Shown here: in pieces, positions 50,921-56,939 of the stretch
How the letters are laid out: each line of letters opens with the position of its first letter
Numbering within the stretch: the first letter of the stretch is position 1
Notes under the pieces: generated by a model
Told to the model about the DNA's origin: nothing
Databases searched by the model: none
What the model saw: the letters and a program-made list of their open reading frames with translations, nothing else
Sequence record: MT764208.1
Origin: Escherichia phage JEP8
Direction: 5' to 3' (one strand)
Length of the DNA stretch: 64,000 nucleotides
Translations under genes and position numbers: made by a program

Positions 50921-50944
50921 GGGGGCTTTCGCCCCCTTTTGTTT
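50921..50944 (+). terminator. plus-oriented intrinsic terminator-like hairpin between td and nrdA
   Basis: GGGGGC-tttc-GCCCCC followed by TTTTGTTT on the plus strand although flanking genes are on the minus strand. Confidence 0.4.
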
Positions 50945-52175
50945 ATACTGCCATTTGAGCGGTGATCGCTGGATGGCTTTGATAGTTGTGAATTTTAAAG
51001 TCTTTCGGAGTCTTTGTCAATACCTCATCTAAAGATTTAAATTCCGGCAACTCGATTGTTGGTTTATCAAACGGAACACGGCTTAACTGTTCCATAACTT
51101 GATCAAAATGGTTTTTGTAAATGTGAGTATCTCCACCAGAGAAAATCAGTTCTCCTACCTCAAGGTCACACATTTTAGCTATGATGTGAGTTAACAGCGC
51201 ATAGCTGGCGACGTTAAAGGGCAAGCCCAAAAAGCTGTCTACGCTTCGCTGAAACCACATACAAGACAGTTTACCCTCATTGACATAGAATTGCACGAAC
51301 GGATGACATACACCTAATACAGCATTATGTGTTCCTTGTACGTTCCATGAGTCAATGATGATACGTCGATCCGTTGGATTGTTTTTAATTTGTTCAATCA
51401 CGTTTTGTAACTGGTCTTCCCAAATCTTCGGGCGATAGACATATTCTTCATCGTCTTTAGTGCTCGATGTGTCTACGTCCATACTAGCAAAGATCGTGGT
51501 ATCGGGTGCTAAAATATCCCCACCCAGATAATCACTATCAAGCAGATAACCGAAATAACCATCATCTACCCATTCCTGGAATCCCCACAAGCAATATGCA
51601 TCATTAACAAAATTAGATTGAGTCTTCCAGTGATCTGCTACTAAGAATTGATTATATTCAGAATCAAACTCTTCATAACGCATACCACGCCAGATAGCAC
51701 ATAAACGGTCTTCTGTGTCGTTGGTTGGCGTAAAGTCTTCTACCCACGGGTGTTTAAATGTATGTGTATATTTGCTCTTAACGCGCTTAATTTTGATTTC
51801 ACCGTGTGGATGAATCGGTTTGCGTCGCCATGCCATACCATACATATTGCCAACATTATAGCCGTTGAATCGTAGCGGATTCTTTTCTTTCATATCAAGA
51901 CAGTTGCCGCGCCAAATGTCGAAGGCTTCTTCGTCAAACTGACCGCGTGTAATTTCCTGTAATCGACGGCGGTCAAGTGATCCCTCCATAAACCATAGCA
52001 ACTCGCCAATTACAGAGGCTGTAGCCATCTTTTTAGTGGTCAGTAATGGGAAACCCTTGCTTAAATCAATTCGCATCTCTGCGCCGAATTTAGAGAGCGT
52101 ACCTACCCCCGTGCGGTCTTCACGAGGCCAGCCATTATCAAGAACATCACGCAATAGTTTCAAATATTCTTTCAT
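50943..52175 (-). CDS. td: thymidylate synthase (ThyA/Td type) with a large internal insertion
   Basis: 410 aa; TS motifs …DRTGVGT…, …NPTDRRIIIDSWN…, catalytic …VCHPFVQFYV…, …FQRSVDSFLGLPFNVASYALL…; about 115 extra residues between the …MYGMAWRR… and …DQLQNVIEQIK… blocks. Confidence 0.9.
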   Translation of the reverse strand: MKEYLKLLRDVLDNGWPREDRTGVGTLSKFGAEMRIDLSKGFPLLTTKKMATASVIGELLWFMEGSLDRRRLQEITRGQFDEEAFDIWRGNCLDMKEKNPLRFNGYNVGNMYGMAWRRKPIHPHGEIKIKRVKSKYTHTFKHPWVEDFTPTNDTEDRLCAIWRGMRYEEFDSEYNQFLVADHWKTQSNFVNDAYCLWGFQEWVDDGYFGYLLDSDYLGGDILAPDTTIFASMDVDTSSTKDDEEYVYRPKIWEDQLQNVIEQIKNNPTDRRIIIDSWNVQGTHNAVLGVCHPFVQFYVNEGKLSCMWFQRSVDSFLGLPFNVASYALLTHIIAKMCDLEVGELIFSGGDTHIYKNHFDQVMEQLSRVPFDKPTIELPEFKSLDEVLTKTPKDFKIHNYQSHPAITAQMAV

Positions 52176-52416
52176 CCCACATCACCTTTTTCTTATTGAT
52201 TGCTTTCTTACGCAGTTTTGCTACTGTCTCGTCAATATTGATAAAGACAACGCCCGGATCGAATACAGTAACAGGTCTTGAAATGTCGCTATTTTCCTGT
52301 ACTGGAAGCCATGACGCTTGAGCTTCATCATAGAGATATTGTAAGCCGTAATAATCTACGGCTACTGCGTAGTTTTCACTGGTAGCCGTCCATAATTGAA
52401 TAATACTGATTTTCAT
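52147..52416 (-). CDS. hypothetical protein (about 89 aa)
   Basis: track ORF; start placed at internal Met MKISIIQLW…; overlaps td start. Confidence 0.3.
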   Translation of the reverse strand: MKISIIQLWTATSENYAVAVDYYGLQYLYDEAQASWLPVQENSDISRPVTVFDPGVVFINIDETVAKLRKKAINKKKVMWDERIFETIA

Positions 52417-52509
52417 TATTGTTCCCGTCCACAATGTAAACACCGACTACCAGCAAACATCAAAGATTCACCACAATGTTTGCACTCATAATCTGTCAGA
52501 ATTTTCATG

Positions 52510-53091
52510 TTACGCCTTCTTACGTTCTAAAATTTGTTCGCTGACCAGGTAATCATCAAGGAAGTAATTATGTTCTTCTTTTGTTGCAAAGTTAAAATAT
52601 AATTCCTGAATCATTTCCTTAGAGATTCCAACATCATGTTCAAATGGATCGTTGATCCCTGAACGTTGAACATACGTTAACACAATACGGTCCGCAAAGT
52701 CAACCGCTTTTTCAATCAGGGAAGGTCCACCGATAACACTTACCAAACCTTGCAATTTCTCTATGACTTCTAATAATTCCTTCAATCCACCATCATTAGT
52801 AATCGCGGTATACACATCAGGTTGTTCGCCGTTTTTTGCTTTCGGTGCTGGCTTACTGGTATCGGTACTAACAACCACATTCACACGACCTTCCAGTGCT
52901 TTAGGGAGACTTTCAAAGGTATTACGTCCCATTACAACCGCCGCAAGATCAACATCTCCCATAGTGCGCATTTTAAAGTTTTCCATGTCCTTTTTGATTG
53001 GACGACCCCACGGTAAACCGCCTTTAAAACCAAACGCCCAATTTTCATCTGACATTTTAGTGTCACCAATCGCAAATACACATTGAATCAT
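52510..53091 (-). CDS. frd: dihydrofolate reductase
   Basis: 193 aa; …GFKGGLPWGRPIKKDMENFK…VMGRNTFESLP… DHFR signature. Confidence 0.85.
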   Translation of the reverse strand: MIQCVFAIGDTKMSDENWAFGFKGGLPWGRPIKKDMENFKMRTMGDVDLAAVVMGRNTFESLPKALEGRVNVVVSTDTSKPAPKAKNGEQPDVYTAITNDGGLKELLEVIEKLQGLVSVIGGPSLIEKAVDFADRIVLTYVQRSGINDPFEHDVGISKEMIQELYFNFATKEEHNYFLDDYLVSEQILERKKA

Positions 53092-53106
53092 AATATAAAT
53101 CTCCCA

Positions 53107-53436
53107 TCAAATCAGTTTGAAATAGTTTTCGTTTACATTTTCTTCTGTGATTGCTGTCTTAAATTCTTGACCGTTATCCGGTGTGATGAAATAACGGTCA
53201 GAATAATCACGAAAACGTTTTAAGTGAGATACCCCAACATTAACACCATTTTCCCAAAAACGAAAGGTAATCATTTTTGGTTCATATCGATAGTCGCTGG
53301 TTAACACAGTACCATCCCCGCGACGGGCTTCATAAACCGTAATACATTCACGATTGGCGGCTTTTAGGCATTCTTCAATAGTGCCGCACGAGATAATACT
53401 TACTTTTTCATCTACGATTTGTTCTACAGTCCACAT
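53107..53436 (-). CDS. hypothetical protein (109 aa)
   Basis: start placed at MWTVEQIVDEK… after the PeSL leader. Confidence 0.4.
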   Translation of the reverse strand: MWTVEQIVDEKVSIISCGTIEECLKAANRECITVYEARRGDGTVLTSDYRYEPKMITFRFWENGVNVGVSHLKRFRDYSDRYFITPDNGQEFKTAITEENVNENYFKLI

Positions 53437-53467
53437 AATATAATCCTCTCTTTGTTTCGATATGTGC

Positions 53468-53495
53468 ATTATACACTATTGCGTTACGCTGTCAA
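53468..53495 (-). promoter_or_regulatory. PeSL-type early promoter (TTGACA-N16-TATAAT)
   Basis: minus-strand; approximate. Confidence 0.5.
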
Positions 53496-55112
53496 CTCTT
53501 TTTCAAAAGTTTTTACGATATACATGATAGTGCTCAATTCAGACGGCGCTACTGTTTCTGTGTAGCCATCCGGCATATCTTCTTTTGAGATATAGGAAGT
53601 TTTACCTTTCATCGCTTCCTTGATCTTGTTCTCTAAGTCTAAGATCTTTTGACCGTCTTGTAAAGTCAATTCATAAAAGATCTCGTGGTTGAATTTGGAA
53701 AGTCGAGATTGACCTCCAATTCGTTCTTTTGTTGTTCTATTGGTTATTCCAAATTTAACGCCAACGAATATTTTTTCTTTTATTAGTTTTTGAATATACA
53801 ATACTCCTTTTTTTAAGGTATTATATCCATATTGTGCGCATTTAGGACAACGAGTTCCTTTCTGAAAGTTTGTTATTGTCGGTGTAAATTCATGGCCTTC
53901 ACTACACACCAAATTTAACTTTGTAGACACACCGTTCCATTCTCCAATAAATCCATTAAATATGATATTTTCTTTTTCGAAAATTGGTTTAAGTCTTTCA
54001 AGATATTCTTCTTTTGATAATGCATAATTATTTGCACATTTAGGACAACGAGTTCCATTCTGAAAACTGGATATGATAGGAGTGAAATTGTGGCCTTCAC
54101 AACACACCAAATCCAATTTTGTTACGTTACCTTTCCACTCACCAACGATTCCATTACAGGTTATATTTTCTTTAATAAATATCGGTGCTAATTTTTCGAA
54201 ATATTCTTCCTTTGGAATCAATTTACGTTCTCTTAATTTAAGAGCTTTACATTTCGGACAGCGGCGACCTTGTTGAAAAACTGCTATGCTCGGGGTGTAA
54301 TTGTGTTTTTCATTACACACCAAATTCAGCCTAGTTCTGCTACCTTTCCACTCACCAACGATTCCATTACAGGTTATATTTTCTTCAACGAAGATTGGTT
54401 TTAATCTTTTAAAATATTCTTCTTTTGATATTTTTCTACTGTTTCTCCAGTTGATAATACCGCAGGTCGAACACCTATTACCGGATTGAAAACCGTTTAC
54501 AGTCGGTGTAAATTTATGGCCTTCACTACACAATAAATTCATTTTTGTTGTGCTTCCGTTCCATTCTCCAATAAATCCATTAAATACGATATTTTCTTTT
54601 TCGAAAATTGGTTTAAGTCTTTCAAGATATTCTTCTTTTGATAGTAATTTCAATTCTCTTAATTTAAGAGCTTTACATTTAGGACAACGACTTCCGACCT
54701 GAAATGCTGTTATCGTCGGAGTAAATTCATGATCCTCACAACATGTTAAGTTTAGTTTTGTGTGCACGCCTTTCCATTCTCCGACGAATCCATTAAACTT
54801 TATATTTTCCTCAATAAAGATTGGTTTAAGTTTTTTATAATATTCTTCTTTTGATAGGGCATAATTATTTGCGCATCTAGAGCATCGTTTACCTTTTTGA
54901 AAATCTGATATTCTTGGTGTAAATTCATGTCCTTCACAACACACCAAACCCAATTTTGTTACGTTACCTTTCCACTCACCAACAAATCCATTAAATACGA
55001 TATTTTCTTTTTCGAAAATTGGTTTAAGTCTTTCGTAATATTCCAATGGGCTAATCGAGTTATAATTTTTCTTAACCCATTCAATCTCATGCGCCTTACG
55101 TACCAACATCAT
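53484..55112 (-). CDS. tandem-repeat zinc-ribbon protein (six repeats of about 70 aa; homing-endonuclease-associated-repeat-like)
   Basis: start placed at MMLVRKAHEIEW…; six repeats of consensus EEY.ERLKPIFEKENI.FNGF.GEWKG..TKLNL.C.EGHEFTP.I..FQ.G.RCPKC; C-terminal 110 aa non-repetitive. Confidence 0.5.
   Translation of the reverse strand: MMLVRKAHEIEWVKKNYNSISPLEYYERLKPIFEKENIVFNGFVGEWKGNVTKLGLVCCEGHEFTPRISDFQKGKRCSRCANNYALSKEEYYKKLKPIFIEENIKFNGFVGEWKGVHTKLNLTCCEDHEFTPTITAFQVGSRCPKCKALKLRELKLLSKEEYLERLKPIFEKENIVFNGFIGEWNGSTTKMNLLCSEGHKFTPTVNGFQSGNRCSTCGIINWRNSRKISKEEYFKRLKPIFVEENITCNGIVGEWKGSRTRLNLVCNEKHNYTPSIAVFQQGRRCPKCKALKLRERKLIPKEEYFEKLAPIFIKENITCNGIVGEWKGNVTKLDLVCCEGHNFTPIISSFQNGTRCPKCANNYALSKEEYLERLKPIFEKENIIFNGFIGEWNGVSTKLNLVCSEGHEFTPTITNFQKGTRCPKCAQYGYNTLKKGVLYIQKLIKEKIFVGVKFGITNRTTKERIGGQSRLSKFNHEIFYELTLQDGQKILDLENKIKEAMKGKTSYISKEDMPDGYTETVAPSELSTIMYIVKTFEKELTA
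53600..54990 (-). repeat. about 210-bp tandem coding repeats (x6) within the zinc-ribbon repeat gene
   Basis: repeated DNA segments correspond to the protein repeats; boundaries approximate. Confidence 0.6.
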
Positions 55113-55139
55113 TTTATCCTCCGTTGTTTCGATGTGTGC

Positions 55140-55167
55140 ATTATACATTACATCATCAGCATGTCAA
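55140..55167 (-). promoter_or_regulatory. PeSL-type early promoter (TTGACA-N16-TATAAT) upstream of the repeat protein gene
   Basis: minus-strand; approximate. Confidence 0.5.
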
Positions 55168-55193
55168 CACCTTTTTCATAAAATTTTAGGCAA

Positions 55194-55222
55194 TAAAAAA
55201 GCCTCCCCGAAGGGAGGCTTTA
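55194..55222 (-). terminator. rho-independent terminator after gene 32 (possibly bidirectional)
   Basis: AGCCTCCC-cgaa-GGGAGGCT flanked by AAAAAAA and TTT. Confidence 0.7.
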
Positions 55223-55229
55223 AAATTCA

Positions 55230-56198
55230 TTACATCGCTAACAGAGAATCCAGGTCATCCAGATCAGAAGCGGAGGAAGTACCGCCACCCAGGTCCAGAG
55301 ATGCCATCAGATCATCAGCGGAAGAATCTAACGCCGTGCTAGCTGCGTTAATACCAACTACAGTGCTAGCTGCGGTAGTACCAGCGTCGAATGCATTCAT
55401 CTGTGCGTCAAAATCATCAAGCTGGCTGTTAATCGCTGCCGCAGCACTGGAAGCCGCAGAACCAGCTACCATAGAAACGCCCATAGTTTTCTTAAATTTG
55501 GTTTCCAGTTCATCGAACGGTTTAAACTGGCTAGGCGCTACAATCTCACTCAGATCAACCATGTTTTCCATCAGATATTTCTGATATGCTTCGTCTTCAA
55601 TTTTCGGAAGCTGTGATTGCTGCATGAAACGAGAATCATCATAGTTCTGGTGTTTATCAACCTTCTTAGCTTTCAGGAGGAAGTTAGCACCGGAGAACAC
55701 ACAAGTTACATCTACCGGAACTTCGCCCATGTCGGTATTCACGTTCACCATTGCAACGATCTTATCATAAATTTTCTGACCGAAGCGGAATTTGAATACC
55801 TTACCTTCATTTTCTGGTGCTTGAGGATCTTTCAGTACCAGAATATTTGCGTAGTAAGACGCTTTACGCTTAATCAGTTGCCATTCTGTTTTATCGGTAT
55901 TGTACAGATCTTTTTCGTTAATATATTTGCACACAGGGCAAGAATCAAAATCACCGTGGGTGCTGGAGCAGTTTTCCCAATACCATTTGCCATTAACTTT
56001 GAAGGAATGGTTTACCAGTTTCACAATCGGCAGACCGTCTTCTGTCTTAGACGGCAGGAAGCGAATCAGGGCTTCACCGTTACCTGCTGCATCAGTCTTA
56101 ATCTTCCACTCTTTCGGATCTTCTTTGGAGAAACCGTTGCCACCTTTCAGTGCGGCCAGTTGAGCTTGCAGTTTGGAAGAATCTTGGCGTTTAAACAT
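55230..56198 (-). CDS. 32: single-stranded DNA-binding protein (gp32-like)
   Basis: start placed at ATG (MFKRQDSS…) after AAGGA; zinc site …[14 protein letters not shown]… and acidic/Ser-rich C-terminus match T4 gp32. Confidence 0.93.
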
Positions 56199-56234
56199 AT
56201 TCACTATTCCTTCTTTTGATTAATTTACTAGACT

Positions 56235-56262
56235 ATTATACAGATTTAAATTTACTTGTCAA
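56235..56262 (-). promoter_or_regulatory. sigma70-consensus promoter (TTGACA-N16-TATAAT) upstream of gene 32
   Basis: minus-strand; perfect hexamers; approximate. Confidence 0.55.
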
Positions 56263-56939
56263 CTATTTGTTTCGGCTTTTAATTGAGATATTTCTTTACA
56301 CTCTTTAACTACTTTAACAAATAATGCTCTTGCTTTTGCGGCGTCAATAACAAGTAGTTTCTTGTACGCCTTCATTTTAACACTATAAGTTTGCCAAATC
56401 AAGTCTTTGGCTACCTTGTCGTGTGCGTCGATTATATTTAGAAAGCTATCTAACAACATAAACGACTCAAACGATATAATCCGATTTTGCAGTAGTTTAA
56501 AGATACCGCTAGTTTCGGTTGCGGGATTGTATGTAATTAGCTCTTTAAGAGTAACCCCGCGTTTCTCTGAGAAGTATACCAGACTTTTAATGTCATCGTC
56601 AAATCGTGTTGCTGCATCGGTTATCTTTCCTATGTATTCCATATAAAAGCCGTATGCGTCAACATCAGTGATTTCACCTACCCATGCATCGGTATTAGCT
56701 ACCAGATTGCTTAGGAATAGGAAGTATAATTCTCTTAGATTGTACTTTTCCGCTAATTTTGCGAAATAATACTTATCTCTGCGTTTATTGAATGCGGTAT
56801 CAGACAACCGCATCCTCCAATTGTATTTTACGCAATCATAACGCCCGTTCATGTGAGCTTTCATCATGCAATATAACATATACACAGATTTAGCATTAAT
56901 TCGCATATCTGGATCTGGAGGAAGACGGTTTCTGATCAT
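56259..56939 (-). CDS. 59: helicase loader (gp59-like)
   Basis: 226 aa; …DMRINAKSVYMLYCMMKAHMNGRYDCVKYNWRMRLSDTAFNKRRDKYYF… matches T4 gp59. Confidence 0.85.
   Translation of the reverse strand: MIRNRLPPDPDMRINAKSVYMLYCMMKAHMNGRYDCVKYNWRMRLSDTAFNKRRDKYYFAKLAEKYNLRELYFLFLSNLVANTDAWVGEITDVDAYGFYMEYIGKITDAATRFDDDIKSLVYFSEKRGVTLKELITYNPATETSGIFKLLQNRIISFESFMLLDSFLNIIDAHDKVAKDLIWQTYSVKMKAYKKLLVIDAAKARALFVKVVKECKEISQLKAETNS

Follow-up and report, generated by a model that had tools for sequence, protein, structure and literature searches.

A putative homing endonuclease gene with six CapR-type zinc modules and a divergent T5orf172-branch nuclease domain in the gene 32/frd slot of Escherichia phage JEP8

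The gene and its flanking cassettes

We analysed a window of 64,000 nucleotides, taken as one whole stretch from the genome of Escherichia phage JEP8 (sequence record MT764208.1), and in it a gene of the minus strand lying between gene 32 and frd, which encodes a protein of six zinc modules of the CapR type followed by a nuclease domain. The genome is that of a Krischvirus, that is, an RB49-like T4-type coliphage: positions 52400-56300 are 97.7% identical to Escherichia phage Delraymugoa, and the flanks of the gene are 92-97% identical to RB49, Phi1, GEC-3S and others. All the genes of the region are read on the minus strand, in the order gene 59, gene 32, the gene under study, an open reading frame (ORF) of 109 residues, frd and td (Table 1), while the plus-strand ORFs of this region are short (41-84 residues). 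The G+C content is 31-36% in the gene and about 38-48% in its flanks. The gene as a whole matches PHROG 681, "endonuclease", with an E value of 1e-111. Scans with NCBIfam and PADLOC returned sub-threshold, unrelated matches only, and no paralogue was found within the window by tblastn with one repeat and the C-terminal domain as queries; the "7 places" matched in Delraymugoa are the repeats matching one another and not extra paralogues.

The longest version of the ORF found mechanically starts with an ATG at 55148 and ends at 53484, which would give 554 residues. We rejected this start, as its ATG sits inside the -10 hexamer of a promoter and has no Shine-Dalgarno sequence. The ATG at 55112 is preceded by the Shine-Dalgarno sequence GGAGGA and is the annotated start of the Delraymugoa protein (98.7% identical). 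Hence, we concluded that the product has 542 residues and starts at 55112; the extent 53484-55112 given in the original prediction, which had been made from the letters and a list of ORFs, is thus correct.

The gene is bounded by two copies of a promoter-early stem-loop (PeSL) cassette. The upstream one consists of a terminator hairpin (55221..55198) and of an early promoter placed upstream of the gene, as expected from the original prediction, which had given the gene a PeSL promoter of its own. The downstream copy comprises the promoter and the 5' untranslated region. Its -35 hexamer TTGACA falls within the final codons of the gene itself (GAG TTG ACA GCG TAA), and it drives the 109-residue ORF. 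Listed mechanically at 53107-53469 on the minus strand with 120 residues, this ORF in fact starts with the ATG at 53436 (thus 53107-53436), on which the promoter, the Shine-Dalgarno sequence and the match to PHROG 16287 (residues 12-120) agree. The homology with every relative picks up exactly at the start codon of the gene, and the breaks coincide with the two cassette copies; with phage MIZ6, for instance, it ends at 53503 and restarts at 55113. This layout matches the PeSL-mediated modular shuffling described for RB49-type phages (Arbiol et al. 2010, PMC2839356; PMC4122927), of which the PeSL is the proposed mediator (PMC2839356). The PeSLs are the vehicle and not the gene; no mention of the ORF was found in the PeSL paper (PMC2839356).

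Inside the 3' end of gene 59, at 56235-56262 on the minus strand and a short way upstream of gene 32, there is a third perfect TTGACA-16-TATAAT promoter, which has nothing but the hexamers in common with the two cassettes flanking the gene.

Table 1. Features of the gene and of its surroundings in the window
Feature	Position	Strand	Remarks
Gene 59	56259-56939	-	
Gene 32	55230-56204	-	
Upstream PeSL-type cassette (full)	55106..55221	-	directly after the gene 32 stop codon
Gene 32 terminator hairpin	55198-55221	-	GC-rich with T-run; in the upstream cassette
Upstream -35 TTGACA	55162-55167	-	perfect TTGACA-16-TATAAT sigma-70 promoter, 55167..55140
Upstream -10 TATAAT	55140-55145	-	
Upstream Shine-Dalgarno GGAGGA	55117-55122	-	
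Coding sequence of the gene (542 residues and stop)	53484..55112	-	six CapR-type zinc modules, then C-terminal T5orf172-like nuclease domain
Zinc module R1, residues 23-87	54852..55046	-	repeat dissection, AF2 model
Zinc module R2, residues 88-158	54639..54851	-	repeat dissection, AF2 model
Zinc module R3, residues 159-229	54426..54638	-	repeat dissection, AF2 model
Zinc module R4, residues 230-300	54213..54425	-	repeat dissection, AF2 model
Zinc module R5, residues 301-366	54015..54212	-	repeat dissection, AF2 model
Zinc module R6, residues 367-427	53832..54014	-	repeat dissection; abuts the nuclease domain
Nuclease domain, residues 425-542	53487..53840	-	GIY-YIG superfamily, T5orf172/MUG113 branch (predicted)
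Downstream promoter and 5' untranslated region copy	53433..53515	-	76-77% identical to 55106-55188 over about 84 bp
Downstream -35 TTGACA	53490-53495	-	
Downstream -10	53468-53473	-	
frd	52510-53091	-	
td	50943-52175	-	

The original prediction had placed the gene at the position where T4 carries segG. This does not hold: segG of T4 is located between genes 59 and 32, and frd.3, frd.2 and frd.1 are found in T4 between gene 32 and frd, so that the JEP8 gene is found on the frd.1-frd.3 side, across gene 32 from segG. When the profile of the family described below was compared by hhalign with T4 SegG (probability 0.4%) and with I-TevI, no similarity appeared. Membership in the seg family was rejected on this ground, and the DNA-binding parts of SegG and I-TevI, both GIY-YIG homing endonucleases, are unrelated to that of the JEP8 protein.

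The slot equivalent to that of T4 segG is, in the window, a gap of 54 nt between genes 32 and 59 (56205-56258). This 32/59 slot holds an HNH homing endonuclease in some Krischviruses, namely Skers (L006:4406-5002) and MIZ4 (L007:4047-4643). Taken with the gene on the other side, this means that endonuclease genes seem to have settled repeatedly on either side of gene 32. Farther downstream, the product of td (thymidylate synthase) has 410 residues, the same length as in RB49 and Delraymugoa, and the Pfam profile Thymidylat_synt matches it in two stretches, the best of which aligns residues 254-410 with profile positions 110-266. The T4 enzyme has 286 residues. The split match and the greater length imply an in-frame insertion of about 125-140 residues in the middle of the enzyme.

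Zinc modules and C-terminal domain

Residues 23-427 of the protein are made of six tandem repeats of 61-71 residues, which are pairwise 51-75% identical in amino acids and 64-80% in nucleotides. Tandem Repeats Finder gives them periods of 198 and 213 nt with scores of 442-465, and the Pfam CapR homology domain (PF21817) matches the protein in six separate stretches (109.5 bits against a cut-off of 24.2, E 9e-32), the first repeat alone reaching 26.2 bits. Hence the repeat array is far beyond chance. The six tandem repeats of the original prediction are confirmed, and the consensus given there holds. The CapR matches overlap matches to DUF4379, a "probable treble-clef zinc finger". The positions which are invariant in all the repeats are EY, L, PIF, ENI, NG, GEW, G, T, L, C, E, H, TP, FQ, G, RC and C. 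The predicted zinc ligands, found in each of the six repeats, are C-x3-H, a spacer of 14 residues and C-x2-C. The ligands had been expected in the form CxxH...CxxC: the two pairs are indeed there, but C-x2-H fits only the three repeats having a CC doublet, and the common form is C-x3-H. The set is a variant of the CapR pattern (two pairs about 15-26 residues apart, CxxC...CxC) in which a histidine stands for one of the cysteines. Across the family, hardly any variation is seen in the last zinc module, including the cysteines of R6, or in the short connector, C-x3-G-[YF], which joins this module to the nuclease domain.

The full-length AlphaFold (AF2) model has a mean predicted local distance difference test score (pLDDT) of 90.2 and a predicted template modelling score of 0.49. 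Each modelled repeat is the same compact unit, in which a helix of 14 residues is followed by a beta hairpin, then by a knuckle and lastly by a short helix with the CxxC, and the confidence falls below 50 in two linkers between repeats (residues 83-85 and 221-225). As modelled, the array is an arrangement of beads on a string. A Foldseek search of the full-length model against the PDB gave no match at E<=0.001; weak matches to tandem double-stranded RNA-binding domains and to glyoxalase (template modelling score about 0.1) were rejected as artefacts of this beads-on-a-string model.

CapR itself, the capsid repressor of the Vibrio cholerae satellite PLE, is a DNA-binding protein which no longer binds once its four cysteines are mutated, and its origin has been proposed to lie in the DNA-binding part of homing endonucleases of phage ICP1 (PMC8096241). 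The DNA-binding anti-CRISPR repressors called CasPRs also require CapR modules (10.64898/2026.02.23.707548), and sequence-specific DNA binding by the CapR domain is known only for these two cases (PMC8096241; 10.64898/2026.02.23.707548). In keeping with the modular DNA-binding array proposed in the original prediction, the repeats belong to a family shown in experiments elsewhere to bind DNA (PMC8096241). A paper on RAZR matched CapRel only, not CapR, and has no bearing here.

The last 118 residues are not repetitive, as had been noticed, and the suspicion that they form a nuclease-like domain turned out to be well founded, although this domain alone has no match to the Pfam models T5orf172, MUG113 or GIY-YIG at E<=10, nor at E<=1 when it was scanned along with the aligned members described below. 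An exhaustive phmmer search with it among 1.84 billion representatives returned 420 clusters at E<=1e-3 and 88 at E<=1e-10 (a word-indexed protein search returned 8 close relatives only). We retrieved 156 family proteins and analysed them locally, aligning 56 diverse members; 114 are full-length. In every one of the 156 proteins, which are about 100-620 residues long, the domain is C-terminal, and it comes after 0-12 CxxC motifs; the N-terminal modules among the full-length members are CapR (71), DUF4379 (48) and DUF723 (25). When the 56 aligned members were scanned singly, 33 matched MUG113, 20 matched T5orf172 and 4 matched GIY-YIG, with a best E value of about 1e-8, and the member P0140 scored 22.1 bits on T5orf172, over the same region, against a cut-off of 20. 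PHROG 681 also spans the domain (E 1.5e-33), and a GIY-YIG alpha/beta core fold is predicted for it with very high confidence. The profile of the family, compared with the sequences of the PDB, found nothing meaningful (best E 1.2, ribosomal protein S5).

Nine residues are invariant in the family, Y15, K29, G31, R40, G63, E70, G92, E95 and T96 in the numbering of the 56-member alignment, and the JEP8 protein retains all of them, as Y439, K453, G455, R464, G487, E494, G516, E519 and T520. The positions of Y439, K453-F-G455, R464 and E494 are invariant in the 56 as well as in the 114 homologues. One can recognize here a tyrosine, a (K-F-)glycine, an arginine nine residues further on and a glutamate, in the order and with the spacing of the GIY-YIG motif; from this order and spacing, and not from a superposition, we infer their equivalence to Y6, Y17, R27 and E75 of I-TevI. 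Hence, on homology and predicted fold, which both support the assignment in spite of the failed direct Pfam test, we place the domain in the GIY-YIG superfamily as a divergent member of its T5orf172/MUG113 branch.

Slot variation among Krischviruses

We surveyed 58 Krischvirus records with a query of 2,001 nt including the flanks, and classed the slot by the matched span; the states were checked directly in MIZ6 (replacement) and in JSE (empty), the remaining records being classed by span alone. The nuclease gene is found in about 28 of the 58 records (matched span about 1180-2000 nt), a replacement segment in about 24 (about 710 nt) and an empty slot in 6 (about 315 nt). This means that the gene is not universally conserved among Krischvirus records, which agrees with the original idea of a mobile gene. 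In MIZ6, the segment L003:2581-2910, standing for positions 53504-55112 of the window, is an unrelated ORFan of 109 residues without any Pfam or PHROG match, perhaps a different cargo of the slot or an allele conferring immunity. In JSE, a close relative without the gene, the junction on the 32/frd side is uninterrupted, which was a check suggested in the original prediction: gene 32 is followed by the hairpin, by one hybrid cassette and then by the 109-residue downstream ORF.

The alleles of the gene differ in their arrays. The number of modules is 1 in MIZ4, 3 in W115, 4 in Skers and AV108, 5 in RB49 and 6 in the window and Delraymugoa, and the repeat subfamily of the JEP8 gene itself has natural alleles with 1, 3, 5 and 6 modules. 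Across 22 alleles the arrays are about 29% identical (median of the best high-scoring segment pair) and the nuclease domain about 80%. The breakpoints between alleles fall at the junction of array and nuclease in RB49, and inside the nuclease domain in Skers, AV108 and MIZ4. Compared with an intact homologue of 274 residues (P0026), the MIZ4 allele (L007:2085-3011) is frameshifted twice within the first of its zinc modules, and it is annotated as a truncated "endonuclease" of 182 residues followed by 378 nt of apparent non-coding DNA; judging from these features, it looks like a decaying copy. Among 8 genomes, no polymorphism segregating with the gene was found in the 200 nt preceding the slot, which take in the 3' end of gene 32 and its terminator.

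Two other Krischviruses, ECD7 and pEJ01, have a distant homologue of the nuclease domain, 33% identical, outside the 32/frd slot, and in them the slot itself has no nuclease. The nuclease family therefore occupies more than one site in Krischvirus.

Probable role and relation to known systems

The gene belongs to a published class. Barth, Dunham and Seed (2023) described T5orf172 putative homing endonucleases, 87% of which have CapR, DUF723 or DUF4397 zinc fingers; these are often repeated, up to six times in phage Helene, and within the class repeats are gained and lost, domains are swapped, and sites beside essential genes are preferred (PMC10448857). Like the members of this class (gp174 and gp165 of ICP1, Helene, Vibrio phage 184E37.3a), the JEP8 gene has N-terminal tandem zinc modules and a C-terminal domain of T5orf172 type, and it shares with them the six-repeat form, the gain and loss of repeats, the swapping of domains between alleles and the location beside an essential gene. 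Its nuclease domain matches directly, by tblastn, that of 184E37.3a (42% identity). Unlike in the class, however, this domain has diverged too far to be recognized by the Pfam models T5orf172 and MUG113, its zinc modules have the ligands C-x3-H...C-x2-C and not CxxC...CxC, and the gene sits in a PeSL-bounded slot of a T4-like phage of the Straboviridae, hosts which PMC10448857 does not mention for the class: it states that T4 is without T5orf172 genes, and RB49 and Krischvirus do not occur in it. Screens by Pfam hidden Markov models such as those of PMC10448857 would miss the Krischvirus proteins, because the domain falls below these models.

The nuclease domain was found by tblastn in 194 phage records, among them phage T5, Vibrio phage 184E37.3a, the jumbo phages 121Q and RaK2, RB16, Lw1 and T4-like phages of Cronobacter. 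Relatives of the gene already bear the annotation "endonuclease" or "GIY-YIG nuclease family protein". The T5 gene, T5.141, has two CapR modules and the same C-terminal domain (36% identity), and its record notes "similar to RB49ORF239C". It is inserted between tail genes, as is typical for homing endonuclease genes; it differs from the JEP8 gene by a shorter array (250 residues), another phage family and another locus.

In the mechanism which we propose, the protein would be a free-standing endonuclease of the T5orf172 branch (GIY-YIG superfamily), expressed early and cutting DNA in a sequence-specific manner. Its six independently folded CapR-type modules would probably read one long DNA site, and the nuclease domain, joined directly to the last module, would probably cut nearby. 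In a mixed infection it would cut co-infecting Krischvirus genomes lacking its allele. These would be repaired by recombination with a genome carrying the gene, through the conserved flanks (gene 32, the genes on the frd side and the two PeSL cassettes), and would in this way receive the gene together with neighbouring markers; SegG spreads in this manner in T4. We think it probable that the gene is a selfish endonuclease gene of this homing type, and this is the role which we prefer. The domain architecture, the invariant residues, the strong promoter proper to the gene, the exact cassette boundaries and the presence, replacement, emptiness and decay of the slot in close relatives, at a recombination-prone place beside an essential gene, are observed, together with the fold as predicted; the binding of DNA by the array, the cutting, the site that is cut and homing itself are what these observations suggest. 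Very different arrays at one locus are, however, at odds with a simple homing into a single empty site, and leave room for competition between alleles or for a nuclease serving in conflicts.

According to the latter explanation, the array would aim the nuclease at other DNA (competing alleles elsewhere, satellites, plasmids, host loci) in a manner comparable to that of ICP1 Odn against PLE, and the gene would move among Krischviruses by PeSL-mediated recombination only. Arrays as variable as those described above, attached to a well-conserved nuclease domain at a single fixed locus, resemble the product of an arms race; the variable segment is bounded exactly by the two PeSL copies and the empty site keeps one hybrid cassette, in keeping with the model of PMC2839356; the promoter is of the immediate-early type; and the co-option of a T5orf172 gene is documented for Odn (PMC10448857). 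However, we found no candidate target, the PADLOC matches are weak and unrelated, and a homing gene would equally be expected to sit beside gene 32, to occur sporadically and to leave decaying copies. We regard this explanation as possible, on the doubtful side. Still rather less probable in our opinion is a wider proposal, namely that CapR arrays provide modular and evolvable DNA recognition, each module of 61-71 residues reading a fixed stretch of DNA, and that the alleles are engaged in an arms race. If this were true, each Krischvirus allele would cut genomes with other alleles or with the empty site, the protein would be a natural, reprogrammable zinc-array nuclease, and the variants of one repeat subfamily with 1, 3, 5 and 6 modules would be natural variants of specificity.

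The original prediction had left the choice between a mobile endonuclease, an idea which is supported by our results, and a sequence-specific DNA-binding regulator. The protein could be a domesticated regulator of this second kind, whose array blocks transcription and whose C-terminal domain no longer cuts: PLE CapR and the phage CasPRs, which share the zinc module PF21817 with it, are transcriptional repressors (PMC8096241; 10.64898/2026.02.23.707548), I-TevI is also an autorepressor (discussed in PMC10448857), and the C-terminal domain falls below Pfam detection. But CapR and the CasPRs have one or two modules, not six, and lack a nuclease domain, which is here the best-conserved part of the gene, so that a pure repressor role is unlikely; moreover, none of the nine family-invariant residues is lost, including the arginine and the glutamate at the GIY-YIG catalytic positions, and the nuclease fold is predicted with very high confidence. 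We consider such a regulator quite improbable. One would expect even less that the gene is a non-functional remnant of a mobile gene, decaying and passively carried. Frameshifted alleles do exist at the locus in relatives (MIZ4), and the gene is dispensable, since 30 of the 58 records appear to be without it; nevertheless, its 542 codons form an unbroken frame, in which each of the six modules has its full set of ligands and all the invariant nuclease residues are present, the copy in an independent isolate is 98.7% identical, and the promoter and the Shine-Dalgarno sequence conform to consensus. This makes a mere remnant very improbable.

Returning to the homing-type endonuclease gene which we prefer, we must note that its architecture, its interpretation as a homing endonuclease, the shuffling of repeats and the PeSL mechanism of shuffling are already published. 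Our analysis adds that the Krischvirus domain, divergent as it is, can be assigned to the T5orf172 branch; it also adds the exact boundaries of the cassettes and the hypervariable slot with its multiple states. T5orf172 putative homing endonucleases with CapR arrays are now placed in the T4-like Straboviridae, and, as this divergent branch escapes the Pfam models used in surveys, such genes are probably under-counted. We consider the gene to be of moderate interest, as an experimentally tractable system. The 32/frd slot is a compact natural experiment, in which one conserved nuclease domain is combined with at least 20 very different arrays of 1 to 6 modules; the same slot also offers a clean empty site, one decaying copy and, as a replacement, an allele unrelated to the gene, all in phages for which E. 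coli K-12 serves as a host. In Krischvirus one can thus directly test for homing, for marker exclusion and for a modular recognition of DNA by CapR arrays, all of them putative so far for the class.

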